Shown: positions 2,251 to 32,120, counted from the stretch's first letter. The stretch: DNA of 34,021 nt from Chloroflexota bacterium (GCA_037441105.1 JBBISW010000005.1:1-34021); one strand, 5' to 3'. Numbers and translations are program-made. The notes: generated by a model from the letters alone, not told the origin.

Positions 2251-4656
2251 ATGAAAGTTTCACTTTGCTGGTTGAGAGACTACGTTGGCATCTCTGTACC
2301 CCTTGGGGAGTTGTTTGAAAGGTTGACTATGGCTGGGCTGGAAGTTGGGGGGACGGAGGTAATCGGCGGAAGCTGGCAGAATATAGTAGTTGGCAGAATA
2401 ATTGATGTTAATGCTCATCCGAATGCTGACCGTTTGTGGCTGGTTACTGTTGATTTGGGTAAACAGCAGTCCACTGTGGTTTGTGGTGCGCCTAATCTTA
2501 CGGTTGGAGATAAGATAGCCTTTGCTAATGTGGGAGCTCATCTTATAGATGGTCACAGTGGTGAGCTTGTGCAATTAAAGCCGGCTAAAATTCGTGGATT
2601 TGTTTCCGAAGGCATGGTTTGCTCCGAGAAGGAATTAGGTATTTCCGATAGCCACGAAGGGATTATGGTTCTATCTCAAGAAGCACCTGTTGGTACGCCC
2701 TTGGCTGAATATCTTGGAGATACGATTCTTGACCTGAAAATAACGCCAAACCGTCCTGATTGTCTATCGGTGATTGGTATTGCCAGGGAGATAGCGGCTC
2801 TTACTGGGAACAAGGTGCATATCCCTGAGGTTTATTACCAGGAATTAGAAAAGGCAATAGATTCATTTGCTTCGGTGGAAATTGTCGAGCCCGAGCTGTG
2901 TCCTCGGTATTGTGCCAGTTTGCTTACTGGGATTAAGGTGGTGCCATCGCCTCAATGGTTGCAGCAGCGTTTATTAGCTTGTGGCATGCGACCTATCAAT
3001 AATATCGTCGATATTACTAACTATGTGATGCTGGAGTATGGGCAACCACTTCATGCCTTCGATTATACCCAAATCCGTGGAAAGCAGATTATAGTGCGTC
3101 GAGCAAAAGATGGCGAGACTATAACTACTTTGGATGGAGTTGAGCGGACTCTCAACCCAAATATACTAGCGATTGCCGACAAGGAGCGAGTTGTTGCCAT
3201 TGCCGGCATTATGGGAGGTGCGGATACGGAAGTTACGGCTGATACTACCACTGTTCTGATAGAATCGGCGAATTTCAACCAGGCGGTTATTCATCGGGGG
3301 GGCATTGCTCTCAGGCTAAGCAGTGAAGCTTCGCTGCGTTTTGAGAAGGGGCTTAGCCGAGAGTTGCCGTTAGTAGCGTTGAAGCGGGCTACTCAATTGA
3401 TGGCAGAATTGGCGGGTGGCAAGGTAGCTAAGGGGATTATCGATGCCTACCCGGGGAAGATACAGGGAGAACCTATATTGTTGTCTGCTGCAGATGTTAG
3501 GCGACTACTTGGTGTAGAGATGAGAGTTAGCGAAATAGTAAAGACTTTGGAGTCTTTGGGTTTCAGCTGTGAAAAAGCCGGGTCACCCTCACAAGTTTGG
3601 GTTGAGATTCCATGGTGGCGCACTGATGTCAATTTTGTTGCTGATCTGGCTGAAGAGGTAGCCCGTGTTATTGGCTATGACAAGATACCGACTACTATGC
3701 TAAGCGCGTCTTTGCCAATACATGAGCCAACACCAATGTTGTCTCTGAGGGGACGGCTACGTAGTACCCTTGTCAATTGTGGTTTTCAGGAGGTGCTTAC
3801 TTATTCCTTGACTAGTCTGGAGATGATGAGCAGGCTTTCGCCCGAGCTTTGTCTGAAAGGCCCAACTCCAGTTAAAGTGGCTAACCCTATGTCCAGGGAG
3901 CAAGAATATCTTCGTACCACTCTGCGGTCTGGGCTTCTCTCAGTTTTGGCTCGCAATGAGAGGTATCAGGAGGATAGCATCAGGCTTTTTGAGATTGGGA
4001 GAGTGTTCTTCCCTCGGGAGAGAGATTTGCCTCAGGAGAAGGAGATTCTTTGTGCCGTGCTCAGTGGATTACAGCGTAGGTTGTTCTGGCGAGGTAAAGA
4101 AGAGCCCGTCGATTTCTTTGTTGCTAAAGGGGTAGGGGAAACCGTTTTGTCCCGATTAGGTTTGATGGCGAGCTTTGAGCCAACTGAAGATGAAAGCTTG
4201 TGCCCGGGGAGAAGTGCCAAAATAATCCTTGGTAGCGAGGTGGTAGGTGTTATCGGTGAACTTCACCCTAAGGTATTGGAAGCCCTTGAGCTTTCCGGGA
4301 CTGCGTATCTTATTGAAATCGACTTGGATAAACTGTCATCTTTTGCAGTAAGTGCTAAGAAGTATGAGCCGGTTCCCCGATATCCGAGCACGGCGAGAGA
4401 TATCGCGCTATTGGTGGACGAGCGGATAATCTACCAACAGATTTATGCTATTATTCAGGATTTCCCCTTGGTGAACTCTGTAGCTCTTTTTGACCTTTAT
4501 GTCGGGCAACAGGTACCGGCAGGCAAGAAATCTCTTGCTTTCCGAATTGTCTACCAATCCGCCACACATACCTTGACTGATGAAGAAGTTGACAGTGTCC
4601 AGCAGCAAATTCTTGATAAGTTGCAGCGCGATTTAAGGGCTACCTTGAGGAGCTGA
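2251..4656 (+). CDS. pheT: phenylalanine--tRNA ligase beta subunit
   Basis: 801 aa. The N-terminus MKVSLCWLRDYV is followed by a tRNA-binding domain and a B3/B4 region. The C-terminal anticodon-binding-like domain reads RDIALLVD...SLAFRIVYQS...TLTDEEV. The gene ends in TGA. Confidence 0.95.
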   Translation: MKVSLCWLRDYVGISVPLGELFERLTMAGLEVGGTEVIGGSWQNIVVGRIIDVNAHPNADRLWLVTVDLGKQQSTVVCGAPNLTVGDKIAFANVGAHLIDGHSGELVQLKPAKIRGFVSEGMVCSEKELGISDSHEGIMVLSQEAPVGTPLAEYLGDTILDLKITPNRPDCLSVIGIAREIAALTGNKVHIPEVYYQELEKAIDSFASVEIVEPELCPRYCASLLTGIKVVPSPQWLQQRLLACGMRPINNIVDITNYVMLEYGQPLHAFDYTQIRGKQIIVRRAKDGETITTLDGVERTLNPNILAIADKERVVAIAGIMGGADTEVTADTTTVLIESANFNQAVIHRGGIALRLSSEASLRFEKGLSRELPLVALKRATQLMAELAGGKVAKGIIDAYPGKIQGEPILLSAADVRRLLGVEMRVSEIVKTLESLGFSCEKAGSPSQVWVEIPWWRTDVNFVADLAEEVARVIGYDKIPTTMLSASLPIHEPTPMLSLRGRLRSTLVNCGFQEVLTYSLTSLEMMSRLSPELCLKGPTPVKVANPMSREQEYLRTTLRSGLLSVLARNERYQEDSIRLFEIGRVFFPRERDLPQEKEILCAVLSGLQRRLFWRGKEEPVDFFVAKGVGETVLSRLGLMASFEPTEDESLCPGRSAKIILGSEVVGVIGELHPKVLEALELSGTAYLIEIDLDKLSSFAVSAKKYEPVPRYPSTARDIALLVDERIIYQQIYAIIQDFPLVNSVALFDLYVGQQVPAGKKSLAFRIVYQSATHTLTDEEVDSVQQQILDKLQRDLRATLRS
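4501..4656 (+). repeat. Copy 1 of a diverged direct repeat, formed by the functional 3' end of pheT
   Basis: This segment aligns codon for codon, without gaps, to 6552..6707. I counted 39 mismatches in 156 nt by hand, mostly at third positions. A 26-nt identical core GACAGTGTCCAGCAGCAAATTCTTGA occurs at 4591..4616 and 6642..6667. Confidence 0.85.
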
Positions 4657-4692
4657 TTTATCTGCGACCAGAATTGTTCGAAGGCTTTCCCC

Positions 4693-4715
4693 TTTAAGCA
4701 AAACTTTTGCTTAAA
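4693..4715 (+). promoter_or_regulatory. Perfect 11-1-11 palindrome TTTAAGCAAAA-C-TTTTGCTTAAA, either a pheST terminator or an operator
   Basis: Read directly from the sequence. It lies 37 nt after the pheT stop and is followed by TTTGCG and then a GTTATAAT box (4721..4728). The stem is AT-rich, so terminator strength is uncertain. Confidence 0.35.
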
Positions 4716-4720
4716 TTTGC

Positions 4721-4728
4721 GTTATAAT
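4721..4728 (+). promoter_or_regulatory. -10-like box GTTATAAT upstream of the surface-protein gene
   Basis: A consensus TATAAT lies at 4723..4728, 36 nt upstream of the GTG at 4765. The context AAATTTgcGTTATAATaGGG recurs at 6708..6727. I found no convincing -35. Confidence 0.35.
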
Positions 4729-4764
4729 AGGGTGTGATTATTTACAGGAAGGGGGGAGACAAGC

Positions 4765-6515
4765 GTGAAAGTTAAAGTTTCTGCTCCGGCTCTATGCTTA
4801 GCTTTGCTTTTAGCTCTTTGTTTCGCAGCTCCTGTCCAGGCTGCTGGAATGACTCCAACGGCTGGTGTTGTTGGGACGACGGTGACCATATCTGGATTGA
4901 CAACCGAGCCTTATTCTATTAAGTGGGATGGAGTTGTAATCAAGCAGGGCACACTGCTGGGTGGGGTAGTGTTACATTTACTGTACCTGATGCCTGCGGA
5001 GGTAATCATACTGTCACAGTGGAAAATCCGATTGGTAATTCGGTCTTTATTGGCTCCTTTTCTGTTCTCCCGTCGATAGGCATTAACCCAAACTCAGGTG
5101 TTATTGGCGATTCTGTCACTGTTGAGGGTAAGGGCTTCGCTGCTACTGAAAGCAGCATTAAGGTCACTTATGATGGTACCGATGTAAAGACCGGGGTCAG
5201 TGCTGACAGCAAAGGCTCATGGAGTACGACCTTTGCTGTGCCCAGCTCCGCCAAGGGTAGTCACACGGTTGATGCCTCAAGAAGTACCAATAAGGCGGGC
5301 GATGTTCCCGATGTGACCTTAACAGTCAGTCCAAAAGTCACTCTTAGCCCGGTGTCTGGGGATGTTGGTACTTCAGTTACTGTCAGTGGTACTGGCTTTG
5401 GCAAGGACGAGGGCGGCATTCGAATTACCTATGATGGCACCGATGCAAGGACTGGGGTCAGTGCTGACAGCAAAGGGTCGTGGAATGCCACCTTTGTTGT
5501 TCCTAACTCTATTAAAGGCGTTCATACAATAGACGCTTCAGGTGCTTCGACCAAGGCCGATGAAATTCCTGACGTCACCTTTATTGTCTCCTCTGCTGTG
5601 AGAATTAAGCCGAATTCGGGGTATATAGGTGATAGTATTACCATCGATGGCTGCGGTTTTGGCGGCAGTGAAAGCGGCATAACGGTTACGTTTGATGGTG
5701 GTGTTGTCAAGAGCGATATCGCAGCTAATAGGGAAGGTTGCTGGACCACCTCTTTGGCTATACCTGCCAGTACCGGAGGTAGCCATTTCATAGATGCTTA
5801 TAGTTCTTCGACTACTGCTGTTGATGTTGCTGATGCTAAATTGGCTGTTTTATCGAAAATGGTCATAGAACCTGCTGAGGGCCATGTAGGTTGTGATATC
5901 GTGGTCAACGGCACTGGTTTTGGCGCAGACAAAGAATTAACTATTAAATATGACAATGTTGCTGTGGTTACTAAATTGGTCACTGATGCTAAAGGCAACT
6001 TTCAAGCGAGCCTTAAGGCACCTAAAAGTCTAGGTGGCAAGCATAATTTGACTGCTGCTGATGCCGGTGGTGCCTCAGCCTCGGGTGTTTTTACTATGGA
6101 AACAACTCCACCATCATTACCACAGGTTGTGTCGCCAAAGGATGGAAGTAGGGTAGGCCTTTTCGATCGTGTTGCCCCTACCTTTGAATGGGCCGGTGTT
6201 TCTGACCCGAGTGGTGTTTACTATAGTTTACAGGTATCTTCTTCTCAATCTGACTTTGCGACTACGGTGTTGAGTAAGGAAGACCTGGTTGAGTCTAAGT
6301 ATACTTTGACTGATGCTGAGGCGTTACTTCGAGGAAAATATTACTGGCGAATTAAAGCTGTAGATGGTGCCGGTAATGATAGCGGCTGGACCACACCAAT
6401 ACTTGTTAAGGTTGGACTTATGCCACTATGGGCGTTCATACTTGTCGTCGTTATTGCCGTCGCTTTTATAACTCGATTGGTTTTCTTTTTGCGGAGTGTC
6501 AGAAGGGGGCACTAG
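4765..6515 (+). pseudogene. Frameshifted cell-surface protein with a signal peptide, five IPT/TIG-like repeats of about 86 aa, an FN3-like module and a C-terminal TM anchor
   Basis: ORF 4765..5079 encodes the signal peptide MKVKVSAPALCLALLLALCFAAPVQAAG and the first half of repeat 1, up to IKWDGVVIKQGT. The repeat continues in the -1 frame of ORF 4923..6515 as GWGSVTFTVPDACGGNHTVTV. This indicates a 1-nt deletion, or an assembly error, near 4950..4960. The C-terminus has YYWRIKAVDGAGNDSGW, then the TM segment LWAFILVVVIAVAFITRLVFFL and a basic tail RSVRRGH. Confidence 0.8.
5076..6100 (+). repeat. In-frame tandem coding repeats with a period of about 258 nt (86 aa)
   Basis: Repeat units start near 5076, 5334, 5592 and 5850. 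Units 2 and 3 are also similar at the DNA level, for example GGGGTCAGTGCTGACAGCAAAGG at about 5193 and about 5451. The consensus is xPxSGxVGxxVTVxGxGF...IxxTYDG...GSW...F.VP.S.KG.HT.DA. Confidence 0.8.
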
Positions 6516-6551
6516 AGAGAGCTTCATCGAGCAAGTTCACATTTCCTTAAA

Positions 6552-6707
6552 GTTGGTGAGCAAGTGCCGGCCGGTAAGAAATCCCTTGCTTTCAGGGTTG
6601 TCTATCAGTCATCTACACATACCCTGACTGATGAGGAAGTCGACAGTGTCCAGCAGCAAATTCTTGAGAGGTTAGCGCGAGAGCTGGGAGCGGCGTTAAG
6701 GAATTAG
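6552..6707 (+). pseudogene. Orphan pheT 3' fragment (copy 2 of the repeat) with no start codon
   Basis: It translates to VGEQVPAGKKSLAFRVVYQSSTHTLTDEEVDSVQQQILERLARELGAALRN followed by a stop. The real pheT C-terminus reads VGQQVPAGKKSLAFRIVYQSATHTLTDEEVDSVQQQILDKLQRDLRATLRS. No pheT sequence lies upstream of the fragment. Confidence 0.85.
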
Positions 6708-6730
6708 AAATTTAGGTTATAATTGGGGCC

Positions 6731-7273
6731 ATGATAACTCAAAAAACCAAGAATCTCTATCTATATCTGGCTCTAGTCTGTTTTGCTGGTATTCTGGCTA
6801 TATTTGCGGTTGATGGTTATTTGGGTGTTTATGACATAGTCTATGTAACAGCTCAAGAGCATGAGCAGAAGATAGAACCTGATTATTGGCAGCAACCTTG
6901 GGTAAAGGAACAAGGTTATGGAATGGGAACCTCGTGGGGAGAGTCGGTTTATTTTAAGTACAAGATTGAGAACCGAACCTTTTCGATTTATGAAGCTGAG
7001 GTTGAAGCCTCGATCTGGAAAAGCGGTGAAAAGATGAAACAGCTGTTGGATGAAAACATCTCGGTAGCTCCATTTAAGGACGTAGTAGTGGATTGGAAGT
7101 TGCGGCCTGAGGACCTGGGGGAAGCAGATCTGGGGCCCGGAGGATATAGAGAGTACACTGTGCGGATCAGACTCGGTGGAATAGAGCGGAAGATAATCAT
7201 GAGCTATCATCGTGAGGTACCCATGTATCCTGAGAAAGGAGTGCCGCAGCCTGTTCCAACACCAAGCAGATGA
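6731..7273 (+). CDS. Hypothetical membrane-anchored protein with an N-terminal TM segment and a soluble domain
   Basis: 180-aa ORF with the TM segment LYLYLALVCFAGILAIFAV followed by a charged, beta-rich-looking domain. The antisense ORF 6773..7210 has a poor composition. A TATAAT at 6718..6723 ends only 7 nt before the ATG. I recognise no family. Confidence 0.6.
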   Translation: MITQKTKNLYLYLALVCFAGILAIFAVDGYLGVYDIVYVTAQEHEQKIEPDYWQQPWVKEQGYGMGTSWGESVYFKYKIENRTFSIYEAEVEASIWKSGEKMKQLLDENISVAPFKDVVVDWKLRPEDLGEADLGPGGYREYTVRIRLGGIERKIIMSYHREVPMYPEKGVPQPVPTPSR

Positions 7274-7288
7274 CGAGGTATTAAGCGT

Positions 7289-7462
7289 ATGAGAATTTAT
7301 ATCCTGTATGGTTTTGGTATTTTATTGTGCATTTCAGGGGTTGGTTATTTAGCGGCGGAGTACATTAAATACCTATCTGAGCCGGGTAAATTAGCTAGTT
7401 TGGCTCTAACCACAGCTATGTTCGCTCTATTTGGGAAATATTTCGATGAGAGAGGTTGGTGA
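7289..7462 (+). CDS. Hypothetical small membrane protein (57 aa)
   Basis: I translated this by hand as MRIYILYGFGILLCISGVGYLAAEYIKYLSEPGKLASLALTTAMFALFGKYFDERGW. It has two hydrophobic segments. It is below the ORF-track size cutoff. It ends in a TGA that is in frame with the next ORF. Confidence 0.4.
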   Translation: MRIYILYGFGILLCISGVGYLAAEYIKYLSEPGKLASLALTTAMFALFGKYFDERGW

Positions 7463-7465
7463 TTG

Positions 7466-7714
7466 ATGGGAGCAGTGGCAGTAATTGCCTCTTTGGCTTT
7501 TATCGGCTGGTTGATTTGGCGAGCGGTTGGAAGAAAGCCGATTAAAGCTCATTTGGTAAGTTACATTCTTTCCTGTATCGCAGGAGCTTTTACCTTTACC
7601 TTCTTTCTGAGCATGGACTTGCCAGAGGTGGTAAAGATACTGGCCTCTATTGTCCTGGGTGGTGTGCTGATATTTATGGCTGCCTGGTTTCAAAGACGTG
7701 TCAAACCAAGCTAG
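7466..7714 (+). CDS. Hypothetical small membrane protein (82 aa)
   Basis: The ORF track lists 7463..7714 (TTG), but an ATG at 7466 is the likelier start. The product MGAVAVIASLAFIGWLIWRAV... has three hydrophobic segments. The antisense ORF 7427..7729 looks spurious. Confidence 0.5.
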   Translation: MGAVAVIASLAFIGWLIWRAVGRKPIKAHLVSYILSCIAGAFTFTFFLSMDLPEVVKILASIVLGGVLIFMAAWFQRRVKPS

Positions 7715-7731
7715 ACTTGACTTTGTCAAGT
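7715..7731. terminator. Short hairpin ACTTGAC-TTT-GTCAAGT between convergent genes
   Basis: A 7-bp perfect stem lies directly after the stop at 7712..7714 and 14 nt from the end of the minus-strand gene at 7745. The flanking T/A tracts are weak. Confidence 0.3.
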
Positions 7732-7744
7732 TTGCTAACTTTGT

Positions 7745-10700
7745 CTAACTCGACCGCCGGCGGAGGATAAGCATAAGCAGGCTGATGTCTAGTATCACAC
7801 CGATAACAACAATTACCCAGCCCCAAAGTAGAGCTTGTTGTGATGTATTGTGTGGTTGAGTTGGTGCATCTTCGGTGCGGAAGACAAAAGTAGCACTCCA
7901 GTCGCTCTGTGTTGGCTCCAATGCCATCACTCGCCAGAAATAGTTGGTGCTGTAATCCAGTGTACTCTCATGCTTGTAACTAGTACTGGGGCTCTCTGTC
8001 TCGACCACAATTTCAGTCATTGCCGAATCTTTAGCCAGGACGAATTTGTATCTTGTGGTGTCTGTGAAAGCTGACCAAGTGAATGATGCCAATTTAACCG
8101 GGCAGCCGAGGCATCCGTTATTAGGCGATAGCAACTGAAGCCCGTAGTACGGAGTGCGCACAGGTAAACCAGCTTTGACAATAAACATTTCTCGCCAGGA
8201 TGATGGACTCCAGATGCTATCGCCTGTAGCCACATCCTGAACTGCTATCCTCCAGTAATAGGTATGACCCGCTTCGAGGGCAGGGACGGTCCATGAATTA
8301 CCATTGGCATCGATAACTTTCCCGCCGCCAGGAGGTATGACTAGAGCAGGAGCATCCAGGTCATGGGGAACATAGAAGGGGACAGACCAGCCCGTACAAA
8401 TTGTCTCCTGCGGCTGGACTAAGTTTGAAGTTCTGCAATAGCCACCAATATAAGCGACCTTCAAGGCAAAATCCTCATCCTTGGCTATTTCAATTCGATA
8501 ACCTCGGGACAAGGACACCGGTTTCCATTTGAGGTTTATCTCGCTAGCTCTTCCTGATACAGGGTCGCAATCCACTGCGGTCCGACTTACAGGCTCAACT
8601 GGTGTGGGACCGGTCCATAATAAGGTGTCTGTGTAGCACCAGACTCCGCCTTGTGGTGGATTGTATAAACGCTGGTCAATAACCCATACAGTAACCGGCT
8701 CGCCAAGGTCCAAGCCACCGCAAATTCTTAACCTTGTAGTTGGCTCTGTGCCCAAACTGATAGTGGGATCAATGCCAGCATAAGCTGACGACCATCGTAT
8801 ATACGCCGTATCCTTCCAGAAGGGGATATGATCACTGAAATAAAAGCTGCCGTTCCTCGATATGGTTAGGCCAGTAACAGCGGTTGGCCAGCTTGGTCCA
8901 CCCCACTGTGTTGACCACTTGCCAAATTCAGGTAGAGGCCAAGCCCAAGCGCCGCCACCGTAATAAACTGACCACTCATACATTCCACCCGAATTGATGG
9001 CGAAGATGTTACCACCTTTTTTATAACCGGAATGCGCAACTACCAAAGTGTTGCCGCGAGTGGGAAGTTGTGCGGTTATGGGAGTGAAACTGACACCTCC
9101 ATCTGTGGAGTAAGCTACATCGTAGGCTCCGGTGCCCATGCTGCCAACGATGATGTGTCCCTTGTCATTGTCCGGCGTTAACCCGGTGTAGGCAGTGGCG
9201 ATGCTGTACCCAGTACCAAGCTCGGTAGACACACTGCTGCCCGATACCCAACCCACCCCACTGAAGGCAAACTTTTGCACCCAGCTATCGGGGCTAAGGA
9301 CATACAATGTCTTGCTGTCCTCCGCTGCCATATCTTGAACGGCGTATGTAGGATGAATATTAGTCCAGTAATCACCAAAATCCGGCGACCACATTATCTT
9401 TTTGGTGCCCACCGCTGCCCAGAAGACGATTTGTCCATCAATTTTATCTCCAGCCAGCCCGAGGATAGCATTATCAGTCTGGTTTTGGGCACAGTTGTGG
9501 CTTGTAGTAGGTTGACATAATACACGTTCCCAGAATGTGCCTAGGGGCAGCGCTGGAAACGGTGATACCACATCAGTATTGCTGCTTGATCGCCAGACAC
9601 TGTCGAAACCGGAGCAGTTGGGATTATCGTTGATTGAAGCCAGATAAATGGTCGAGCAGTCAGGAACCGGGGCAATATCAGTGAACTTACTGATTTTGGT
9701 ATCTATCAAAGCAAGCTGATTCCACGTCTCACCATTATTTCGACTGAATGAGAATGCTGATTCATCAAGGTCTTTACCTGTGAGATAAGGGTTTGGCCAA
9801 TTAGCACCGGCGATAAGGACTGCGCTGCTGGCTGTGCCAGCATAGGCAATAGTGCCGTCTGGTGACCAGGCAACCTGGGCGTTGCCATAGCCGGAGGCGG
9901 GAACTCGGGCAGCCCCAGTAGGTGGCTTCATAGCTGGGTACCAGCAGGGAATAGGGCAGGTGGTAGGGGCATCGGTGAACCAGGTCATCACTGTAGCCGA
10001 ACATGGGTTGCCGAGAACCTCACCAGCCAGTAGCTTTCCTGAGGCATAGGTGCCATAGTAGGCGATGCTGGAAATCCTCTTGGTTGCAGTTGCCGACATT
10101 AACTTATAGCCTACGGTGTCATCGAAACGGTAGATGCCAGCGTTGCCTGTAGTTCCGGCATCATCGATGCTAATATAGCAGCGGCGCAGGCTTGGAGCTT
10201 GTCCGGAAAAGTCGGAAGGCATCTTTAGGTCGGCAGTTATAACTTGATGTACCTTAGGCGAGGTGTTAGCTCCGGCGGTGGTAATTTCCACTGGAACCCA
10301 TGTGCCCCAGTTGGTGGTGTTGGCGACCTTATCATGAATACCGATGTTAATGTAGGTGCCGGAGTTGTTAGCTGAGATGACTACTAGAGTAGAGTCGCTG
10401 GCGTAAGTGGGCGAGAACTTCATTGCCAGTATATCGCCGCTGAAGCCCTGGGCTGCCCAGGTGCCTTGCCCCGATGCCTTGAATATGTAGACATTGCCGG
10501 TGCCGAGACCGGTTCGTATGCCGACGGCGATATCATAGCCGCGGTAGTTTGGAGAGATGTCAATCGCGCTTATATGGGCGCCAGCAGGACAATTGGTGTT
10601 CTCCCATTTGGTGCCGCCGTCGGTTGATATCCAGACATTTCGCGGCAAATCAGTTGCGCTGTCATTGGTGACTACGGCTAAAAAGTTGACATTGTCGGGG

Positions 10701-11077
10701 GCTATAGCTACGTTCCATAGGCGGAAGTTGCCTTGCTCTGCGGGAGTCATTTCTCGGTAGAGGTTAATAGAGATTTTATCGTTCCAGGATATGCCACTAT
10801 CGACTGATTTATACAGCGTTTTACTGCCGATAATGCCCGGGTTGGCGATATCCACGGCGTAGAAAGTTTTGCTGTCTGAGCCGATAGCAATGCGGTTCAC
10901 CTCACATGGGCTGACGATGTCATTCTTGCCAGGGACTGCCCCCGGCGTATCGATACGAGTCCACTTGAGGACTGCCGGGCTGGCAGAGACTGGCTCGTTT
11001 GTGATTGCTGACAGCATGGTGGCTATCATTGCTAGGCTGATCGTAAGTGCTAAGATGGCGCGATGTGTAGCTTTCAT
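7745..11077 (-). CDS. 1110-aa BNR/Asp-box repeat beta-propeller surface protein (S-layer-like) with FN3-like modules and a C-terminal TM anchor
   Basis: The signal peptide is MKATHRAILALTISLAMIATMLSA. Asp-box motifs are SVDSGISW, STDGGTKW, SRNNGETW, SPDFGDYW and STDGGVSF. Cys-rich extracellular segments are present. The C-terminal modules end in GHTYYWRIAVQD and TNYFWRVMALEP, followed by the TM segment LLWGWVIVVIGVILDISLLMLIL and a tail RRRSS. The RBS AAGGAGGA lies upstream of the ATG. Confidence 0.9.
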   Translation of the reverse strand: MKATHRAILALTISLAMIATMLSAITNEPVSASPAVLKWTRIDTPGAVPGKNDIVSPCEVNRIAIGSDSKTFYAVDIANPGIIGSKTLYKSVDSGISWNDKISINLYREMTPAEQGNFRLWNVAIAPDNVNFLAVVTNDSATDLPRNVWISTDGGTKWENTNCPAGAHISAIDISPNYRGYDIAVGIRTGLGTGNVYIFKASGQGTWAAQGFSGDILAMKFSPTYASDSTLVVISANNSGTYINIGIHDKVANTTNWGTWVPVEITTAGANTSPKVHQVITADLKMPSDFSGQAPSLRRCYISIDDAGTTGNAGIYRFDDTVGYKLMSATATKRISSIAYYGTYASGKLLAGEVLGNPCSATVMTWFTDAPTTCPIPCWYPAMKPPTGAARVPASGYGNAQVAWSPDGTIAYAGTASSAVLIAGANWPNPYLTGKDLDESAFSFSRNNGETWNQLALIDTKISKFTDIAPVPDCSTIYLASINDNPNCSGFDSVWRSSSNTDVVSPFPALPLGTFWERVLCQPTTSHNCAQNQTDNAILGLAGDKIDGQIVFWAAVGTKKIMWSPDFGDYWTNIHPTYAVQDMAAEDSKTLYVLSPDSWVQKFAFSGVGWVSGSSVSTELGTGYSIATAYTGLTPDNDKGHIIVGSMGTGAYDVAYSTDGGVSFTPITAQLPTRGNTLVVAHSGYKKGGNIFAINSGGMYEWSVYYGGGAWAWPLPEFGKWSTQWGGPSWPTAVTGLTISRNGSFYFSDHIPFWKDTAYIRWSSAYAGIDPTISLGTEPTTRLRICGGLDLGEPVTVWVIDQRLYNPPQGGVWCYTDTLLWTGPTPVEPVSRTAVDCDPVSGRASEINLKWKPVSLSRGYRIEIAKDEDFALKVAYIGGYCRTSNLVQPQETICTGWSVPFYVPHDLDAPALVIPPGGGKVIDANGNSWTVPALEAGHTYYWRIAVQDVATGDSIWSPSSWREMFIVKAGLPVRTPYYGLQLLSPNNGCLGCPVKLASFTWSAFTDTTRYKFVLAKDSAMTEIVVETESPSTSYKHESTLDYSTNYFWRVMALEPTQSDWSATFVFRTEDAPTQPHNTSQQALLWGWVIVVIGVILDISLLMLILRRRSS

Positions 11078-11105
11078 GGTATCCTCCTTTAAACTTGATC
11101 TTGAT

Positions 11106-11138
11106 ATTAAAAATCCCCCACTCCTGAGAGCAGGGGAC
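11106..11138 (-). terminator. Intrinsic terminator forming the expression platform of cobalamin riboswitch A
   Basis: On the minus strand the RNA reads CCCCUGCUC-UCAG-GAGUGGGGG followed by AUUUUUAA. This is a 9-bp stem including two G-U pairs. It lies about 30 nt upstream of the BNR-gene RBS. Confidence 0.7.
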
Positions 11139-11292
11139 TTATGGTACGGCTTGGCTCATTCACTCCCTTCTCCGCGGAGGCTGATAAAGGTTGTGGGGCA
11201 GGCGTTCTGACTTTTACAGCAGGCGGGGCTGTGCCGGAATTTCACCGGCTTGCTCTCCAATTAAGCTCTTGGTCACCCAAGAACGCCCCGGT
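11139..11292 (-). promoter_or_regulatory. Cobalamin (B12) riboswitch aptamer A
   Basis: On the minus strand the sequence reads GGUGACCAAGAGCUUAAUUGGAGAGCAAGCCGGUGAAAUUCCGGCACAGCCCCGCCUGCUGUAAAAGUCAGAACGCCUGCCCC. It contains the conserved GGUGAAAUUCC, GCCCCGC..GCUGU and B12-box AGUCAGAACGCCUGCC elements. The 5' GGCGUUC can pair with GAACGCC. Confidence 0.85.
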
Positions 11293-11294
11293 CA

Positions 11295-11325
11295 ATTATT
11301 GTTCTGAGTTAGATTGAGAAGTCAA
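11295..11325 (-). promoter_or_regulatory. Possible promoter for riboswitch A and the BNR gene
   Basis: On the minus strand, TTGACT (11320..11325) is followed by a 19-nt spacer and AATAAT (11295..11300). The spacer is longer than optimal, so this call is tentative. Read-through from the upstream gene is an alternative. Confidence 0.3.
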
Positions 11326-11525: not shown

Positions 11526-12542
11526 TCACTTGGCTGTGCCGAAAATCTCGGGGTGAATGAATTTTGCTACCTCCTCTAAGCCGTCTACTATTCTTGGTCC
11601 GGGACGCTCAATCAGATTGGCATCACTTATTCTATAAACCTGGTTGTTGACGATAGCATCTATTCCCGCTAGTCTTGTTTCTTTCATTATAGAGTTGTAT
11701 ATCAAGTTTCCTGATGTACCCATACCGCTGACGATGATTACTTGGGGGTTCCTGGCGACAACAGCCTCCAGCGATACAACTCGGGATTTCTCGAAGTCAT
11801 CAGCAAAGATGTTAACTCCACCGGCTTTCCAGATTAAGTCAGCGATAAAAGTTTTACGGCCCATTGTCCATATCGGGTCATGCCAGCAGACATAGAGGAC
11901 TCGAGGCCTCTTTTCCGCAGGTAAATCTTTGGTTTTTGCAGTTACTGCTTCAATTCTGTTGGTCAAGTTATTAATTAGCTGGGAGGCGGCTCGGCTTTTT
12001 CCATTAATTTGACCTATCAAAGCTATGTCTTTAAGCACCGTATCAATAGACTCCGCTGACATTACAATGACAGTTAGCCCAAGCTTTTCCAGAGCTGGTA
12101 GCACCATTTTCTCGTGTATTGATTCGGCAATCACCAGGTCTGGTTCCAGAGAAATCACTTTTTCCCTGTCAGGTGTGAGGTAACCAGCCACTCGTGGTTT
12201 AGCCTTAGCTGCCTCCGGATAGTCACAATAGTCCGTGGTGCCTACTAATCTATCTTCGAGCCCCACGGCAAAGAGAATCTCGGTGTTGCTCGGTGCTAGA
12301 GAGACAATCCGCTGTGGTAACCGCTCAATTGTTACTGTCCTGCCCAGATCATCAACAATGGTTAATGGAAAGCTGGGTAATTCCTCTGGCTCTGGTTTAA
12401 CTTTCTCCGGTGGTTTTCCCTCAGTTATTGGTGGGGGTGACGGTGGGGTTTCTTGAGTTGGGGGTGGAGTGGCACAAGCAACTGAGAAAACTAATCCTAC
12501 TATCGCCAGTAAAGTCAGAAAACCTAGAATATACTGTTTCAT
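11526..12542 (-). CDS. btuF: BtuF-like ABC transporter substrate-binding lipoprotein of the cobalamin/siderophore class
   Basis: The lipoprotein signal is MKQYILGFLTLLAIVGLVFSVAC. A Pro-rich linker TPPPTQETPPSPPP follows. The segment RIVSLAPSNTEILFAVGLEDRLVGTTDYCDYP is typical of the class III Fe/B12 binding-protein fold. A cobalamin riboswitch lies directly upstream. The symbol rests on family plus riboswitch context. Confidence 0.8.
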   Translation of the reverse strand: MKQYILGFLTLLAIVGLVFSVACATPPPTQETPPSPPPITEGKPPEKVKPEPEELPSFPLTIVDDLGRTVTIERLPQRIVSLAPSNTEILFAVGLEDRLVGTTDYCDYPEAAKAKPRVAGYLTPDREKVISLEPDLVIAESIHEKMVLPALEKLGLTVIVMSAESIDTVLKDIALIGQINGKSRAASQLINNLTNRIEAVTAKTKDLPAEKRPRVLYVCWHDPIWTMGRKTFIADLIWKAGGVNIFADDFEKSRVVSLEAVVARNPQVIIVSGMGTSGNLIYNSIMKETRLAGIDAIVNNQVYRISDANLIERPGPRIVDGLEEVAKFIHPEIFGTAK

Positions 12543-12560: not shown

Positions 12561-12595
12561 AATAAAAATCCCCGTGCTCCTGAGAGCAGGGGGAT
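12561..12595 (-). terminator. Intrinsic terminator forming the expression platform of cobalamin riboswitch B
   Basis: On the minus strand the RNA reads CCCCCUGCUC-UCAG-GAGCACGGGG followed by AUUUUUAUUU. The stem is nearly identical to that of terminator A. Confidence 0.7.
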
Positions 12596-12748
12596 ATTAA
12601 TTAAATAACAAGTCCCACCCCCTTACTCCGCGGAGGCAGTTAATAGCTATAGGGCAGGTGTTCTGACTTTCACAGCAGGCGGGACTGTGCCGGAATTCCG
12701 CCGGCTTGCTCTCCAATTAAGTCCCTAGTTACCCAAGGACACCCCAGC
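12596..12748 (-). promoter_or_regulatory. Cobalamin (B12) riboswitch aptamer B
   Basis: On the minus strand the sequence reads GGGUAACUAGGGACUUAAUUGGAGAGCAAGCCGGCGGAAUUCCGGCACAGUCCCGCCUGCUGUGAAAGUCAGAACACCUGCCC. It has the same conserved elements as copy A, including the B12 box. Confidence 0.85.
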
Positions 12749-12769
12749 TACACTATTCAATTTAATGAC

Positions 12770-22136: not shown

Positions 22137-23252
22137 TTACAGTCTCAATTCTTGAGCTAGTACCTCTCGATGGAAATCAGCATCGCCAAGTGCGAGTTCA
22201 GCGGCTTTTGCCCGCTTCGAATACAGGGGCATGTCGTGGTCTTCCATCAGACTCACACCGCCTATACTTTGATGCCCCAATTTGGTAACTCGCTTGTAAG
22301 CATCGCTTACCCAGGCCTTTGCCATGGCAGCTTCTATAGCATAAGGGAGTTTCTCGCTAATTTTCCAGGCAGCTTTATAGCTAATGAACCTCGACGTGTC
22401 AATGTCAGTTAGCATATTGGCACAGTGATGTTGGATAGCCTGGAAGGCGCCTACAGGTACTCCAAACTGTTTACGGTCTTTGACATAATCCACAGTCATT
22501 TCTAGGGCTTGCTGGGCACCGCCGACCATCTCAATACATTTAGCTACCGCAGCTTTCCGTAATACCTCACGCAGTTGGATATTTCCCTGTCCTTCTTTTC
22601 CAAGGATGTTTTTCTTCGGTACTTTCACTTTGTTGAAAACCACGTCAAATTGCTTGTCACCATCAATGGTTTTGAGTAATGTGTAACGGATACCTGGGCT
22701 TTTGGTATCTACAAGGAATAAGGTAACTCCGTTTGTGGTTTTGGCGACACAGATAATGTAGTCAGCAACATGAGCGTAAGGGACAAAGAACTTTGTGCCA
22801 CTGATGACATAATCATTTCCATCGAAGACTGCCTTTGCAGTTACCTTATCAACATTGTAGCCTCCACCAGGCTCGGTCAAAGCTAGGGTAACAATCAATT
22901 TTCCTTGAGTGATCTGAGGCAGAAATTCTTGCTTCTGGGTCTCATTGCTCATTTCGAGGATGGGCATGCCTGCTAAAACCACGGTGCTAAAGAAAGGACC
23001 AGGCAGGCAAGCACGCCCCATTTCCTCCAGGAGAACAGCAAGGTCGAGGAAGCTACCTCCAGTGCCGCCATATTTCTCAGGGAATGCCAGTCCCATCCAA
23101 CCCAAGTCTGCCATTTTATCCCATAGTTCCAAAGGATATCCTCTTTCGTCGCTCACCATCTGTTTTACCAGGCTTTTGGGACATTCTGTGGTGAGAAAAT
23201 CGCGAGCCATTTTTTTCAGCATCTCTTGTTGTTCGCTAAGACCGAAATTCAT
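22137..23252 (-). CDS. Acyl-CoA dehydrogenase family protein, small subunit-like with degenerate active-site motifs
   Basis: 371 aa with an ACAD fold. ACAD signature 1 is degenerate (TEPGGGYN instead of TEPxAGSD). The position of the canonical YEGT catalytic Glu reads ALGD. No Glu occupies the alternative helix-G position. Confidence 0.85.
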   Translation of the reverse strand: MNFGLSEQQEMLKKMARDFLTTECPKSLVKQMVSDERGYPLELWDKMADLGWMGLAFPEKYGGTGGSFLDLAVLLEEMGRACLPGPFFSTVVLAGMPILEMSNETQKQEFLPQITQGKLIVTLALTEPGGGYNVDKVTAKAVFDGNDYVISGTKFFVPYAHVADYIICVAKTTNGVTLFLVDTKSPGIRYTLLKTIDGDKQFDVVFNKVKVPKKNILGKEGQGNIQLREVLRKAAVAKCIEMVGGAQQALEMTVDYVKDRKQFGVPVGAFQAIQHHCANMLTDIDTSRFISYKAAWKISEKLPYAIEAAMAKAWVSDAYKRVTKLGHQSIGGVSLMEDHDMPLYSKRAKAAELALGDADFHREVLAQELRL

Positions 23253-23305
23253 AGTAATTTTTTCTCCTTTTTGAAGTGCAACTTGCCAGGATTTTAAAAC
23301 TCAAA

Positions 23306-24523
23306 TCAACCTGAGGGTAATCCCAGTCCTCTGAGGGCGATGATATTTCTCATGATTTCAGAGGTACCAGCGTAAACAGTTTCAATGAACCCCCAGCGAT
23401 AGTGGAGTTCTGCTTCACCATGAAGCGGTGCCCATTTGGAACCCGTTTGCAGTTGTCCACTTGGTCCAATTATTTGGGTAGCGATGTCAGCCAGACGATG
23501 GGCTGTCTCTGTGGCAAACATCTTTTGCATAGACGATTGATAATTGGGTACCTCACCCTTATCGAGGATGTAGGCAAGCTGATAGTAGAGCAGGCTGGAT
23601 AACTCCAGCTCGATCGCCATTTCGGCCAACTTCTGTCGTATAACTGGGTCTTGGCTTAGTGATTTACCATCACGTTTTGTCTCTTTGGTATACTCGATGA
23701 TCTCATCGAAAATGCGCCTGAAACTACCAACAGGGAACATCCTTTCGAAGTCCAGGGCAGTCATTATGTAATAGAATCCGCGGTTTTTCTCTCCTACCAG
23801 GTTCTTCTTGGGGACTTTCACGTTATCGTAGAAGACCTCATTTGTTTTCCAGCCGGCTATTGTTGTCATATTACGGATGGTAATACCTGGGCTCTTCAGG
23901 TCTACAACCATAAGTGAGATACCCCGGTGGCGCTTTGGAGTGGTAGGGTCAGTTCTCGCTCCCAACCAGTGGTAATCAGCGAAGTGAGCATGGGTATTGA
24001 ACATCTTCTGCCCGTTTAATAAGAAGTAATCTCCTTTATCTTCAGCTTCTACTTCTCCCCTGGCTGCAGCTCGTGCCTCTGCCATGTCCTCAGCCCGTAG
24101 CTCCAGTGCTGCCAAATCAGATCCTGCCTGAGGTTCGGTATAGCCCAGAGCCATCTCGATCTCGCCTCGGGCAATGCGGGGTAGATATTCCTTTTTCAGT
24201 TCATCGCTACCCAATCTCAAGATGGTAGGGCCTGCCATGGTTGCACCAACCAGTGATACCGGCGCTCCGGCATAAGTCATCTCATCACGGATGATAAATC
24301 CTACCATCTCTGAGCTATTTATACCGCCGTATTCTTTTGGCCAGGTAGGGCAAAGCCAGCCTCTGGCTCCCATCTTTTGAATGATTCTGCGACCGTGCAC
24401 TGGGCCAGCACCTCCACTGTATTCCACTACCTCAGCGATGAGCTCCGGTGTAACTTCTTTTTTGAGAAAATCACGAACCTCTTGTCTGATTTTCTCCTCT
24501 TCTGGGGTAAATCCAAAATCCAT
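23306..24523 (-). CDS. Acyl-CoA dehydrogenase family protein, large subunit-like
   Basis: 405 aa with an intact signature GYTEPQAGSDLAA. The C-terminal motif is YAGTSEI, so the canonical Glu is replaced by Ala. A Glu is present at the isovaleryl-CoA-dehydrogenase-type position (ALDFERM). An extra Ala/Glu-rich insert EDMAEARAAARGEVEAED is encoded at 24041..24094. Confidence 0.88.
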   Translation of the reverse strand: MDFGFTPEEEKIRQEVRDFLKKEVTPELIAEVVEYSGGAGPVHGRRIIQKMGARGWLCPTWPKEYGGINSSEMVGFIIRDEMTYAGAPVSLVGATMAGPTILRLGSDELKKEYLPRIARGEIEMALGYTEPQAGSDLAALELRAEDMAEARAAARGEVEAEDKGDYFLLNGQKMFNTHAHFADYHWLGARTDPTTPKRHRGISLMVVDLKSPGITIRNMTTIAGWKTNEVFYDNVKVPKKNLVGEKNRGFYYIMTALDFERMFPVGSFRRIFDEIIEYTKETKRDGKSLSQDPVIRQKLAEMAIELELSSLLYYQLAYILDKGEVPNYQSSMQKMFATETAHRLADIATQIIGPSGQLQTGSKWAPLHGEAELHYRWGFIETVYAGTSEIMRNIIALRGLGLPSG

Positions 24524-24692
24524 ATTGTGCCTCCTTATTGCTTAACTTGGATCGGAGTTTAACACAGCGTAGCTAGTAGATGGCAATCTGCCGTAGTGTA
24601 ACAAATATCAACCTTAACTTCAATATCTACGGGGAACACAAAGCGAGAAGGAGGAAGTGAGTAAACCTGCTTATTGAGTATAACTTGCGGAG

Positions 24693-24727
24693 AAAAAACT
24701 CAGCCCCCCCGGAAAGGAGGGGATGAG
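24693..24727 (-). terminator. Intrinsic terminator between the two ACAD gene pairs
   Basis: On the minus strand the RNA reads CUCAUCCCCUCC-UUUCC-GGGGGGGCUGAG followed by UUUUUU. This is a 12-bp GC-rich stem with one mismatch. It lies 25 nt after the stop at 24752. Confidence 0.7.
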
Positions 24728-24751
24728 AATGGTGCTCATTGCTGCACTAGT

Positions 24752-25885
24752 TTAGACAAGCCCAATCTTTTGAGCTACTAACTCCCTGTGGAAGTCGGTG
24801 CCACCGAAAGCGATGTCTGCGGCCTTTGACCTGCGGTAGTAGAGGGGTATATCGTGGTCATAGCTGGTGGCGATTCCACCATGTAACCTTACTGCCCACT
24901 TGCTCACATTTTTATAGACCTCGTTGACATAAGCCTTTGCCATTGAGGCTTCTTTGGTACAGGGGAGCCTTTCTGATTCCATCCAGGCTACCTCGTAGAC
25001 CAGATAGCGGCTTGTCTCCATTGCTGTCCACATATCGGCCATTATGTGCTGAAGTGCCTGGAAGGCTCCAATTGGCCTGTCGTATTGAACTCGCTCTTTG
25101 GAATAGGCTACAGTCATCTCGACACAGGTTTGTATGGCACCGATGGATTCGGCACATTTAGCGATAGACCCTTTGCGCAGTAGCATTTCCACAATAGGCC
25201 ATCCCTCGTCCAGCTTACCCAGCATGTTTTTCTTGGGCACGGCGACGTTCTCGAATCGTACCTCACATTGCTTGTCCGCGGCCATGGTAGGTATCACTTC
25301 GCAGCATATCCCAGGCGATTTGGAGTCAACAATGAAGAGAGTGACTCCTTTTTCAGGAGAGGCTCCGTTTTTTGTTCTTGTGGCGCAGATGATGTAATCG
25401 GCAACATGGGCCATTTCCACGAAGAGCTTTGTGCCATTGATTACGAAGTCATCTCCTTTGGGTGTTGCCTTAACAGCAATTCCAGAAGCGTTGAATGTAC
25501 CATCAGCTTCAAGGAGGGCTGTAGTAAGAATTAGCTCTCCTCGAGCTATCTTTGGTAGAAACTCCTTCTTTTGTTCTTCAGTTCCTGTTTCAAGGATTGG
25601 GAAAGTGCTGGTTATGGTGGAGACTAAAGGACCGGGAAGGATGTTCCTGCCTATTTCCTCCATGAGGACTGTCAGGTCTTGGAAGGTATAGCCCATGCCC
25701 TCGTATTCTTCAGGGATGATTAATCCCATCCACCCCAGCTCAGCCATCTTCTTCCACAGTCCGGGAGAATATCCCTTATCGCTCTGTTCAAGCTCTCTCA
25801 CCAGAGTCTTAGGACACTCCGTGCCCAGGAAATCCCGTGCCATTTTTCTTAATATTTCTTGCGCTTCAGTAAATCTAAGATCCAT
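24752..25885 (-). CDS. Acyl-CoA dehydrogenase family protein, small subunit-like with degenerate active-site motifs
   Basis: 377-aa paralog of 22137..23252. The signature is degenerate (LLEADGTFN). The YEGT position reads FGGT. No Glu occupies the helix-G position. Confidence 0.85.
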   Translation of the reverse strand: MDLRFTEAQEILRKMARDFLGTECPKTLVRELEQSDKGYSPGLWKKMAELGWMGLIIPEEYEGMGYTFQDLTVLMEEIGRNILPGPLVSTITSTFPILETGTEEQKKEFLPKIARGELILTTALLEADGTFNASGIAVKATPKGDDFVINGTKLFVEMAHVADYIICATRTKNGASPEKGVTLFIVDSKSPGICCEVIPTMAADKQCEVRFENVAVPKKNMLGKLDEGWPIVEMLLRKGSIAKCAESIGAIQTCVEMTVAYSKERVQYDRPIGAFQALQHIMADMWTAMETSRYLVYEVAWMESERLPCTKEASMAKAYVNEVYKNVSKWAVRLHGGIATSYDHDIPLYYRRSKAADIAFGGTDFHRELVAQKIGLV

Positions 25886-25909
25886 GATTCCTCCTAATCG
25901 AAACTCCGT

Positions 25910-27364: not shown

Positions 27365-28192
27365 TTAGCGGTGCCTGATGTCTTCGATATGATAATGCAG
27401 GATACCAGCAGGTGCCTTAACCTCGACTTTTTGTCCCTTCATCCGGCCTAATAATGCTTGACCCATAGGCGAGGCGACAGAGATTTTGCCCTCTAGCAGG
27501 TTGGCTTCACTGGCATCAACTAACGTGTAGTTTACTTTTTCACCAGAAGCCATGTCCCGGAGTACCACCGTATCACCAAAGGTTATTTCATGGCCGCCGG
27601 CCTGCTGTTCATCCACCACTGTTGCCATTTTTAGGGTTGATTCCAGCTCTTTAATGCGTGCCTCCAACTGGCCTTGGTACTCTCGAGCTGCCTCTAGTGG
27701 AGCATTTTCGCGAAAGTCTTTATCAGCTGCTGCCTTCTGTAACTCTTCAGCTACTCGGGGCCGCTCGTTTTTGAGGGCGTCAAGCTCAGTCTCTAAATCC
27801 GCATAGCCTTGGCTGGTCAGCAAGACTTTCCTGCGGTAATATCGCTTCGAATGGGAAGCTGATTTGGCTGGAGACTTCTTAGTTTTGAGGTGGACAGCTA
27901 AGTTTGTTCTGGTTAAGCCCTGCTTGTAGGCATAGGCAAGGAAAGTTTTGATTGTCCCGAGCTTTTCAACTACTTCGGTGGTTGACGAAGTGATCTGCTC
28001 AGCATAATTAGCCACTTCCGGGATAGTAAGTCCGCTGAACGGACGTTTTTCTCCGTACCAGCGTACAAATTTATGTACTTCTTGTTGGGCTTTTAGTCTT
28101 TCTTCTGAGGGTAATGTTATGAGAAACTGTGTGGCAACCTGTCCTAGGCTGTAACTGTCTGGGGCTAAACTAGGCGTATTTTGCAAAGCCAT
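27365..28192 (-). CDS. GreA/GreB-family transcript cleavage factor with a roughly 125-aa N-terminal extension resembling an integrase SAM-like (core-binding) domain
   Basis: The C-terminal 150 aa contain the Gre coiled-coil tip DKDFRENAPLEAAREYQGQLEARIKELE (DxxENA retained) and a C-terminal domain ISVASPMGQALLGRMKGQKVEVKAPAG. The N-terminal part reads QFLITLPSEERLKAQQEVHKFVRWY...LGTIKTFLAYAYKQGLTRTNLAVHLK. A basic linker joins the two parts. Confidence 0.8.
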   Translation of the reverse strand: MALQNTPSLAPDSYSLGQVATQFLITLPSEERLKAQQEVHKFVRWYGEKRPFSGLTIPEVANYAEQITSSTTEVVEKLGTIKTFLAYAYKQGLTRTNLAVHLKTKKSPAKSASHSKRYYRRKVLLTSQGYADLETELDALKNERPRVAEELQKAAADKDFRENAPLEAAREYQGQLEARIKELESTLKMATVVDEQQAGGHEITFGDTVVLRDMASGEKVNYTLVDASEANLLEGKISVASPMGQALLGRMKGQKVEVKAPAGILHYHIEDIRHR

Positions 28193-32106: not shown

Positions 32107-32120
32107 TTTGTTTTCCAAAG

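Follow-up and report, generated by a model that had tools for sequence, protein, structure and literature searches.

A Cobalamin Riboswitch-BtuF-Propeller Module in Dehalococcoidia Encodes a Probable Surface Helper for B12 Scavenging

The window analyzed here, a 34,021-nucleotide stretch of DNA from a Chloroflexota bacterium (GCA_037441105.1 JBBISW010000005.1:1-34021), encodes on its minus strand a 1110-residue protein that belongs to a riboswitch-linked clade of type-I membrane-anchored surface proteins (open reading frame (ORF) at 7745-11077). The gene is preceded by a predicted cobalamin OFF-riboswitch and, farther upstream, by a gene for a BtuF-like lipoprotein. The 1110-residue protein is probably a surface helper for B12 scavenging that has not been described before, as judged by the recurrence of this module of riboswitch, B12-binding protein, and propeller gene in about 50 related Dehalococcoidia loci. 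The reading favored here, and held with somewhat better than even confidence, is that the protein serves a monoderm Dehalococcoidia bacterium as a surface-exposed accessory of the corrinoid uptake machinery that is induced by B12 starvation.

A Riboswitch in the Leader of the Propeller Gene

A cmscan search of the whole window against Rfam 15 at gathering thresholds returned three matches, one to the thiamine pyrophosphate (TPP) family and two to the Cobalamin family. The cobalamin aptamer in the leader of the gene for the 1110-residue protein, aptamer no. 2, occupies 11180-11305 (-) and scores 34.7 bits against RF00174 (gathering threshold 31.5; E 2.2e-5). A first-pass annotation of the window had called a cobalamin riboswitch in front of this ORF from sequence motifs, and the call stands: GGUGAAAUUCC, GCCCCGCCUGCUGU, and AGUCAGAACGCCUGCC are all present in the window sequence, and AGUCAGAACGCCUGCC aligns to the B12-box region of RF00174. 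The span given at that time, 11139-11292, is slightly offset, with borders about 15-40 nt away from those assigned by Rfam.

In the cmscan alignment, both cobalamin aptamers of the window lack about 70 nt of the peripheral extension of the RF00174 model and are therefore short and class-II-like. Class-II cobalamin riboswitches (RF00174/RF01689, clan CL00101) have a B12 box and no peripheral extension, as does the window aptamer, and the terminator-type expression platform found here is also that of class II. A homologous copy of the aptamer in locus L011 scores best as RF01689 AdoCbl-II. Both window aptamers exceed the gathering score of RF00174 (clan CL00101), the conserved B12 box and core helices are present, the core columns are invariant across the 12 and 21 copies of two leader alignments, and the expression platform comprises a conserved terminator and a mutually exclusive anti-terminator. 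A marginal or chance match was considered and rejected: the score of aptamer no. 2 is near the gathering threshold, yet homologous RF00174 copies in other loci reach up to 48.5 bits, and the element and its terminator are conserved with covariation. Judged by its sequence, the riboswitch RNA itself is an ordinary member of RF00174/CL00101, and the regulated gene is the unusual part.

Downstream of aptamer no. 2, a CCUCCGCGGAG hairpin, a G-rich GGAGAAGGGAG segment, a terminator, an AGGAGG Shine-Dalgarno sequence, and the ATG at 11077 follow in this order, with no other plausible gene between the riboswitch and the ORF. Intrinsic terminator no. 2 (11109-11140, (-)) has a 13-bp stem, a 4-nt UCAG loop, and a U5 tract, and its hairpin is calculated at -19.9 kcal/mol. 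The AGGAGG (11083-11088, (-)) lies 5 nt before the ATG and is conserved in the leader alignment. The succession of GC-rich hairpin, U-tract, and ribosome-binding site with ATG that the first-pass annotation had described is therefore correct. Within the putative switching sequence (11163-11180, (-)), the P13-like CCUCCGCGGAG hairpin (11180-11170) shares the sequence GGAG with the anti-terminator strand GGAGAAGGGAG (11173-11163).

Comparison of 21 proximal leaders (alignment A3) provides several lines of evidence for this arrangement. The order of aptamer, small hairpin, G-run, terminator, Shine-Dalgarno sequence, and ATG is kept, and the CCUCCGCGGAG hairpin is invariant in 21/21 leaders. Terminator cells are paired in 88% of cases, with compensatory changes in 6 of the 13 pairs, and the whole tested structure is 91% paired in its true register versus 47-68% in registers slid by 1-3 columns. 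When the leaders are folded without the 3' arm of the terminator, GGAG and the G-run pair with the 5' arm of the terminator in nearly all 21.

In class-II cobalamin riboswitches, a kissing loop between L5 and L13 stabilizes the small hairpin in the ligand-bound state. High intracellular cobalamin would likewise lead to ligand binding by the class-II-like aptamer and to stabilization of the CCUCCGCGGAG hairpin. Because GGAG is common to the small hairpin and the anti-terminator, this stabilization would free the terminator, and transcription would stop before the 1110-residue protein gene. At low B12, GGAG and the G-run would pair with the terminator 5' arm as an anti-terminator, and the gene would be transcribed. 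The leader comparison shows a conserved switch that is predicted to act as a standard transcriptional B12 OFF-riboswitch, leaving the gene on when B12 is scarce.

Promoter-like sequences, recognized by consensus match only, stand immediately 5' of both cobalamin aptamers of the window. A sigma-70-like TTGACT-16-AACAAT lies at 11298-11325 (-) before aptamer no. 2, and TTGACT-17-TATACT with a TG lies at 12798-12770 (-) before aptamer no. 1. These matches would fit two separate transcription units in this genome.

Conservation of the Riboswitch-Gene Linkage

More than 800 homologs of the 1110-residue protein are found, all in Chloroflexota/Dehalococcoidia metagenome-assembled genomes (MAGs) or metagenomes and all annotated as hypothetical. 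Ninety-eight related loci were examined, 16 from GTDB species genomes and 80 from metagenomes, plus loci L097 and L098. A covariance model, R1, was built from 12 Rfam-threshold matches and then run on all loci. Proteins at least 46% identical to the query define the ortholog range (60 loci), and loci with at least 1.3 kb of upstream DNA were counted as informative (52 loci). Independent loci are somewhat fewer than these counts, because some contigs were retrieved from both collections.

In the two collection scans, 51 of the 52 informative orthologous loci have a same-strand cobalamin riboswitch, versus none of the 36 paralogous loci (proteins 38-43% identical) in the R1 search; a BtuF gene is likewise present in none of the latter. 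Conservation upstream of orthologs had been set beforehand as a test of the riboswitch-gene link, which it supports. The riboswitch lies 85-186 nt before the gene in 30 loci of the two scans, most of them with a second copy about 1320-1500 nt upstream, before btuF. The same riboswitch-btuF-riboswitch-gene layout is seen on the 2.46-Mb and 1.34-Mb contigs of L097 and L098. In 21 loci the only riboswitch is distal, at an upstream distance of about 1130-1240 nt in most cases, and is followed by btuF and the propeller gene in one operon; in the operon of L006, 47 nt separate the btuF stop codon from the following start codon. Regulation solely by read-through from btuF was considered and rejected, since in about 60% of informative loci the propeller gene is preceded by an aptamer and terminator of its own.

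A BtuF homolog is encoded immediately upstream of the gene in 50 loci. In a neighbor-joining tree of 86 full-length members, all riboswitch/btuF-linked genes form one clade, and the unlinked genes fall into other clades. The only unflagged members of the riboswitch-linked clade are two loci without upstream DNA. Synteny shows that, in a clade whose proteins diverge down to 46% identity, the propeller gene is genetically linked with the gene for a B12-type substrate-binding lipoprotein.

The same distribution bears on the possibility that the riboswitch controls this gene although its function is unrelated to corrinoids, for example as a B12-independent substitute for a B12-dependent process. 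Riboswitches do control B12-independent isozymes in other bacteria, which gives this idea a precedent. However, the riboswitch-btuF-gene linkage persists down to 46% identity, all 51 informative loci in which the gene is intact retain it, no paralog shows it, and none of the known B12 enzymes could plausibly have a surface propeller protein as an isozyme. A merely fortuitous neighbor is accordingly very improbable.

Individual loci vary in their surroundings, and in some the module belongs to a complete cluster of uptake and salvage genes. The order is riboswitch-btuF-riboswitch-gene-riboswitch-btuF2-btuC-btuD in L022, gene-riboswitch-btuC-btuD-cbiB at the end of the cluster in L039, and cobS followed farther along by btuF-riboswitch-gene in L003. 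The third cobalamin riboswitch of L022 (4939-5078, before btuF2-btuC-btuD) and of L039 (6810-6949, before btuC-btuD-cbiB) lies 64 nt after the propeller gene, and in both loci three successive paralogous riboswitches fit into about 5 kb. In L037, L091, and L061, the only riboswitch lies 1520-2234 nt upstream, and a gap of about 350-1100 nt between btuF and the propeller gene contains no detectable aptamer. This gap could be a degenerate second riboswitch or inserted sequence.

The BtuF-like Neighbor and Its Riboswitch

The gene upstream of the propeller gene (11526-12542, (-)) encodes a 338-residue lipoprotein that matches Pfam Peripla_BP_2 (PF01497) at 128 bits (E 4.2e-37). Its best PDB matches are vitamin B12-binding proteins, namely 5ysc (5e-31) and Escherichia coli BtuF 1n2z (6e-20). 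The Peripla_BP_2 domain and the B12-binding closest relatives place it among the class-III substrate-binding proteins. The NCBIfam BtuF model matches at 104.9 bits (3.9e-30), and the protein is called BtuF-like because this score is below the equivalog cutoff of 234. IsdE is a distant homolog according to NCBIfam and PDB searches. Cys23 of the lipobox leads into a Pro-rich tether of about 35 residues (residues 24-60), which is conserved in the BtuF proteins of the module and absent from the btuCD-linked BtuF2 of L022.

Aptamer no. 1, in the btuF leader, occupies 12636-12761 (-) and scores 39.9 bits against RF00174 (E 6.8e-7). The custom model R1 scores it at 142.7 bits, but this aptamer is among the 12 sequences from which R1 was built. 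A terminator hairpin with a U-run, read from the sequence, lies at 12564-12594 (-) and is preceded by a CCUCCGCGGAG hairpin (12636-12626). The terminators of riboswitches no. 1 and no. 2 have a CCCCUGCUCUCAGGAG core in common. The earlier description of the neighbor as a riboswitch-controlled, BtuF-like lipoprotein agrees with these data. Across the module, btuF would have a paralogous switch of its own or would share a single switch with the propeller gene in an operon.

Architecture and Fold of the 1110-Residue Protein

AlphaFold2 was run on a 67-sequence alignment and gave a predicted local distance difference test score (pLDDT) of 88.7 and a predicted template modeling score (pTM) of 0.80. 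A predicted signal peptide spans residues 1-32 (10982-11077, (-)), with a modeled helix at residues 3-25, readable n, h, and c regions, and an AxA-like cleavage site (VSA followed by S). By DSSP analysis of the model, residues ~38-825 (8603-10966, (-)) form two tandem β-propellers with about 14 four-stranded blades. They contain five Asp-box motifs (S-x-[DN]-x-G-x-x-[WFY], at residues 91, 151, 445, 564, and 657). Two FN3 domains follow (residues 826-1075; 7853-8602, (-); domain model pLDDT 88.4) and are a probable membrane-proximal stalk. A C-terminal transmembrane helix (residues 1084-1109; 7751-7828, (-)) and then an RRRSS tail complete the model, and the same C-terminal anchor is present in the paralogs.

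The combination of signal peptide, ectodomain, and C-terminal transmembrane helix identifies a type-I membrane-anchored surface protein. As modeled, the protein is surface-exposed and membrane-anchored, with the FN3 stalk proximal to the membrane and the double propeller distal. The first-pass annotation had listed the signal peptide, propeller, Asp-boxes, FN3-like modules, and membrane anchor, all of which are recovered here; its term "Cys-rich" was an overstatement for 17 Cys in 1110 residues.

Sequence searches place the protein only loosely. Pfam matches to BNR (PF02012; 20.5 bits, cutoff 27) and Sortilin-Vps10 (PF15902; 15.8 bits, cutoff 33) are weak likenesses to Sortilin/Vps10-type BNR propeller proteins, and FN3-like matches are also below their cutoffs; the paralogs carry precomputed PF15902 and PF02012 matches. 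An NCBIfam search gave no match, and a profile of 67 family members found no match better than E 0.017 among PDB sequences. Informative domain fusions were sought in three unusually long homologs (P0112, P0115, and P0030), and none was found.

In structural comparison, the best Foldseek matches in the PDB are GH74 double seven-bladed propellers (6p2o and 5fkt, E ~1e-16, 13-15% identity); 5jwz and 6p2m are also among the top matches, the four ranging from 1e-16 to 3e-15. Their TM-scores of 0.24-0.38 are low because the query was the full-length multidomain model. Other full-length matches are DDB1 and the sensor domains of hybrid two-component systems, which are generic double propellers. When residues 826-1078 were modeled separately with AlphaFold, the matches were generic tandem FN3 pairs, among them those of DCC, CNTN4, and CbhA, at 2.6e-6 and weaker, and BtuH- or BtuJ-like folds are absent among the 50 matches listed for this model.

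GH74 xyloglucanases share the double seven-bladed Asp-box propeller fold with the 1110-residue protein, which raises the question of a surface enzyme or receptor for corrinoid carriers. A GH74-like cleft could bind or cleave a corrinoid-carrying macromolecule (glycan, protein, or vesicle) from producer organisms, liberating corrinoids for BtuF. The best structural matches are indeed endo-xyloglucanases that hold their substrate in the cleft between two propellers, and the gene is co-regulated with btuF. On the other hand, the identity to GH74 is only 13-15%, there is no family match at the sequence level, and glycan-utilization genes are absent nearby in the loci examined. Membrane anchoring, B12 regulation, and btuF synteny also set the 1110-residue protein apart from any GH74. 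An activity on corrinoid carriers is therefore unlikely, although it is a better candidate than an unrelated function.

Paralogs and Clade Specialization

Orthologs and riboswitch-free paralogs can occur in one genome, as evidenced by L011 and L010, both from MAG VGNX01, and by L098, where a 1033-residue paralog lies 2.5 kb downstream of the regulated gene. Riboswitch-free paralogs also form tandem arrays of 730-1000-residue proteins (L010, 105-8589; L014, 1779-9888; L098, 10813-13258), and one paralog clade has a near-invariant C-terminal anchor, WVWVVIAIGAILVIVTLVLIFKTRRV.

Residues that distinguish the riboswitch-linked clade were sought by comparing 51 clade members with 35 paralogs, with positions counted when their conservation in the clade reached 92% or more and no more than 15% of paralogs shared the residue. 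Fifty of the 58 clade-specific positions fall between residues 624 and 963, a range that takes in the final blades of propeller 2 and the first of the two FN3 domains. Aromatic and charged gains include Y624, W725, R741, Y746, Y759, R761, W821, W929, D953, W961, R962, and E963. Many clade-specific residues lie in the first FN3 domain, where Y902 and D923 join W929, D953, W961, R962, and E963. The clade also has an insertion, YTGLTPDN (residues 630-637; 9167-9190, (-)), that is absent from all 35 paralogs and whose TPDN segment shows 96-100% conservation within the riboswitch-linked clade. At positions 855, 936, and 949 the paralogs have Cys instead. Much of the N-terminal propeller is common to both groups, with 130 positions conserved across clade and paralogs. 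The clade-specific pattern agrees with a new interface for a ligand or partner close to the propeller-stalk junction, as far as residue conservation can indicate, and the comparison shows the riboswitch-linked clade to be a specialized branch of a larger Dehalococcoidia envelope-protein family.

Membership in such a family suggests another explanation, in which the 1110-residue protein is a specialized paralog of putative S-layer or envelope proteins that is inserted under B12 starvation to remodel the envelope, for example to widen pores or to scaffold BtuF, without binding corrinoids. The whole family has the signal peptide, double propeller, FN3 domains, and C-terminal transmembrane anchor in common, the paralogs occur in tandem arrays typical of envelope proteins, and no known B12-binding motif was found in Pfam and PDB sequence searches. 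Within the same bacterial class, the S-layer protein of Dehalococcoides mccartyi (Q3Z6N3) is annotated as a BNR/Asp-box surface protein (PMC6646388), and a preprint reports its fold as a β-propeller (10.1101/2024.05.28.596244). Neither source reports riboswitch linkage. Homology to this S-layer protein is not established; two homology searches, the second of them seeded with a paralog, gave only unnamed MAG proteins among their best 120 matches. Moreover, tight operonic coupling to btuF and clustered clade-specific aromatic and charged changes are more in keeping with an interface to a specific ligand or partner than with a lattice variant.

The first-pass annotation had offered a related alternative, a major S-layer-like protein tuned to B12 supply. 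That proposal is weakened, because the unregulated paralogs in the same genomes are better candidates for a bulk envelope protein. Envelope remodeling without corrinoid binding is thus a minority possibility, and a role as an accessory of corrinoid uptake is preferred.

Proposed Role in Corrinoid Uptake

As an accessory of corrinoid uptake, the protein would reach the cell exterior and stay anchored in the membrane through its C-terminal helix, and the two FN3 domains would raise the double propeller above the membrane. Corrinoids, either free or on a carrier, may be captured by the double propeller at surface-layer height and handed to BtuF on its long tether for delivery to BtuCD. The likely site of ligand binding or of BtuF docking is the clade-specialized region, which spans the final propeller-2 blades and the first of the FN3 domains. 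An extended polyproline-type linker of 35 residues is estimated at about 10 nm and two FN3 domains at about 7-8 nm. The Pro-rich tether could let BtuF reach the propeller-stalk junction.

The closest functional parallel is found in Bacteroides thetaiotaomicron, where BtuG, BtuH, and BtuJ are surface lipoproteins of riboswitch-controlled btu loci that capture corrinoids and pass them to the transporter (PMC13616437, PMC6143338, PMC10404256). BtuG binds B12 via a face of its β-propeller (PMC13616437, PMC6143338, PMC10404256), and its crystal structures, 8BMZ for example, are available from the PDB (PMC13616437). The 1110-residue protein is similarly encoded in a riboswitch-controlled btu locus. 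However, BtuG is a single seven-bladed propeller lipoprotein that sits on the outer-membrane, TonB-dependent BtuB, whereas the Dehalococcoidia protein has a double propeller, two FN3 domains, and a C-terminal transmembrane helix. No btuB or TonB genes were seen in the loci examined, and the partner of the 1110-residue protein appears to be BtuF rather than an outer-membrane BtuB. The likeness to BtuG proposed in the first pass survives as one of function and not of sequence: the profile of 67 family members gave no BtuG match at E ≤ 1 against all PDB chain sequences, and there is no relevant Pfam or NCBIfam match. The best reading, by analogy, is a functional analog of BtuG/BtuH/BtuJ from an unrelated protein family, with a putative role in capture.

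The Isd heme relay of Gram-positive bacteria offers a second parallel. In this starvation-induced system, IsdB/H pass heme to IsdA/C, then to the lipoprotein IsdE and on to IsdDF, and the receptors consist of NEAT domains, are anchored to peptidoglycan by sortase, and are regulated by Fur. The logic proposed here is similar in that a surface-anchored receptor would hand a tetrapyrrole to the class-III substrate-binding lipoprotein of an ABC importer. Unlike Isd, to whose proteins the 1110-residue protein has no sequence homology, the module uses propeller and FN3 domains, a transmembrane anchor, and a riboswitch.

Several observations weigh against a capture role. Corrinoid capture is deduced from regulation and synteny, and B12 regulation together with btuF synteny would also fit an indirect role such as envelope remodeling or a docking scaffold. 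No B12-binding family is matched by the 1110-residue protein in Pfam, NCBIfam, and PDB sequence searches. The fold matches are to generic double propellers and FN3 domains, and BtuG is not among the top 50 Foldseek matches of the protein. One locus within the ortholog range, L016 (55% identity), is the sole exception to the linkage, having neither riboswitch nor btuF; its gene is broken into three ORFs (3974-6836), which suggests a pseudogene or frameshift errors in the assembly. Finally, all loci come from uncultured MAGs and metagenomes.

A more explicit form of the corrinoid-accessory proposal is put forward tentatively, at somewhat less than even confidence. A clade of envelope-type double propellers may have been recruited as the dedicated corrinoid receptor of a monoderm cell, forming a new B12-binding family convergent with BtuG. 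Cobamides would be captured at the surface layer by a site made of the final propeller-2 blades and FN3 domain 1, with hand-off to a BtuF on its tether of about 35 residues. This would be the first extracellular corrinoid relay described outside Bacteroidota.

Other Features of the Window

Just beyond the 3' end of the propeller gene and convergent with it, 4923-6515 (+) encodes a further probable surface protein, which has 530 residues with three IPT/TIG repeats and additional Ig-like domains. Family searches gave no matches for the ORFs at 6731-7273 (+) and 7427-7729 (-). Farther away, four acyl-CoA dehydrogenase genes stand in tandem at 22137-27094 (-), encoding proteins of 371, 405, 377, and 394 residues. 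A GreA/GreB-like ORF of 275 residues (27365-28192, (-)) has a GreA N-terminal domain that begins only at residue ~124, which implies an N-terminal extension of about 120 residues or a mis-set start codon. The TPP riboswitch (RF00059; 32159-32272, (-); 70.7 bits) is directly upstream of a ThiC radical-SAM gene (30811-32118, (-)), a classical arrangement.

Implications for Corrinoid Acquisition

Surface capture proteins decide B12 competition in gut Bacteroides, and to our knowledge no equivalent surface capture of B12 has been described in monoderm, S-layer-type cells. The riboswitch-propeller arrangement is not described in the full-text literature searched; many subscription-journal papers, such as early work on D. 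mccartyi corrinoid transcriptomics, lie outside that scope, and a prior mention there is possible. According to a 2024 review of cobamides in organohalide respirers (PMC11321594), the majority of Dehalococcoidia with obligate organohalide respiration (Dehalococcoides, Dehalogenimonas) are auxotrophic for corrinoids and depend on cobamide scavenging. For uptake, the review names only BtuFCD and salvage enzymes.

A riboswitch-controlled accessory surface protein of B12 uptake is a known kind of component; what would be new is the non-homologous family and the different type of cell envelope. As a conserved, riboswitch-controlled, and BtuF-coupled surface protein, the 1110-residue protein is a concrete and testable candidate for the missing capture step, and the module points to a possible new B12-binding fold. 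The protein may also provide a marker of B12 limitation in sediment and aquifer metatranscriptomes and a lever for better growth of fastidious Dehalococcoidia. If the proposal is true, it would add a new extracellular corrinoid relay to a class that is rich in corrinoid auxotrophs and relevant to bioremediation and sediment carbon cycling.

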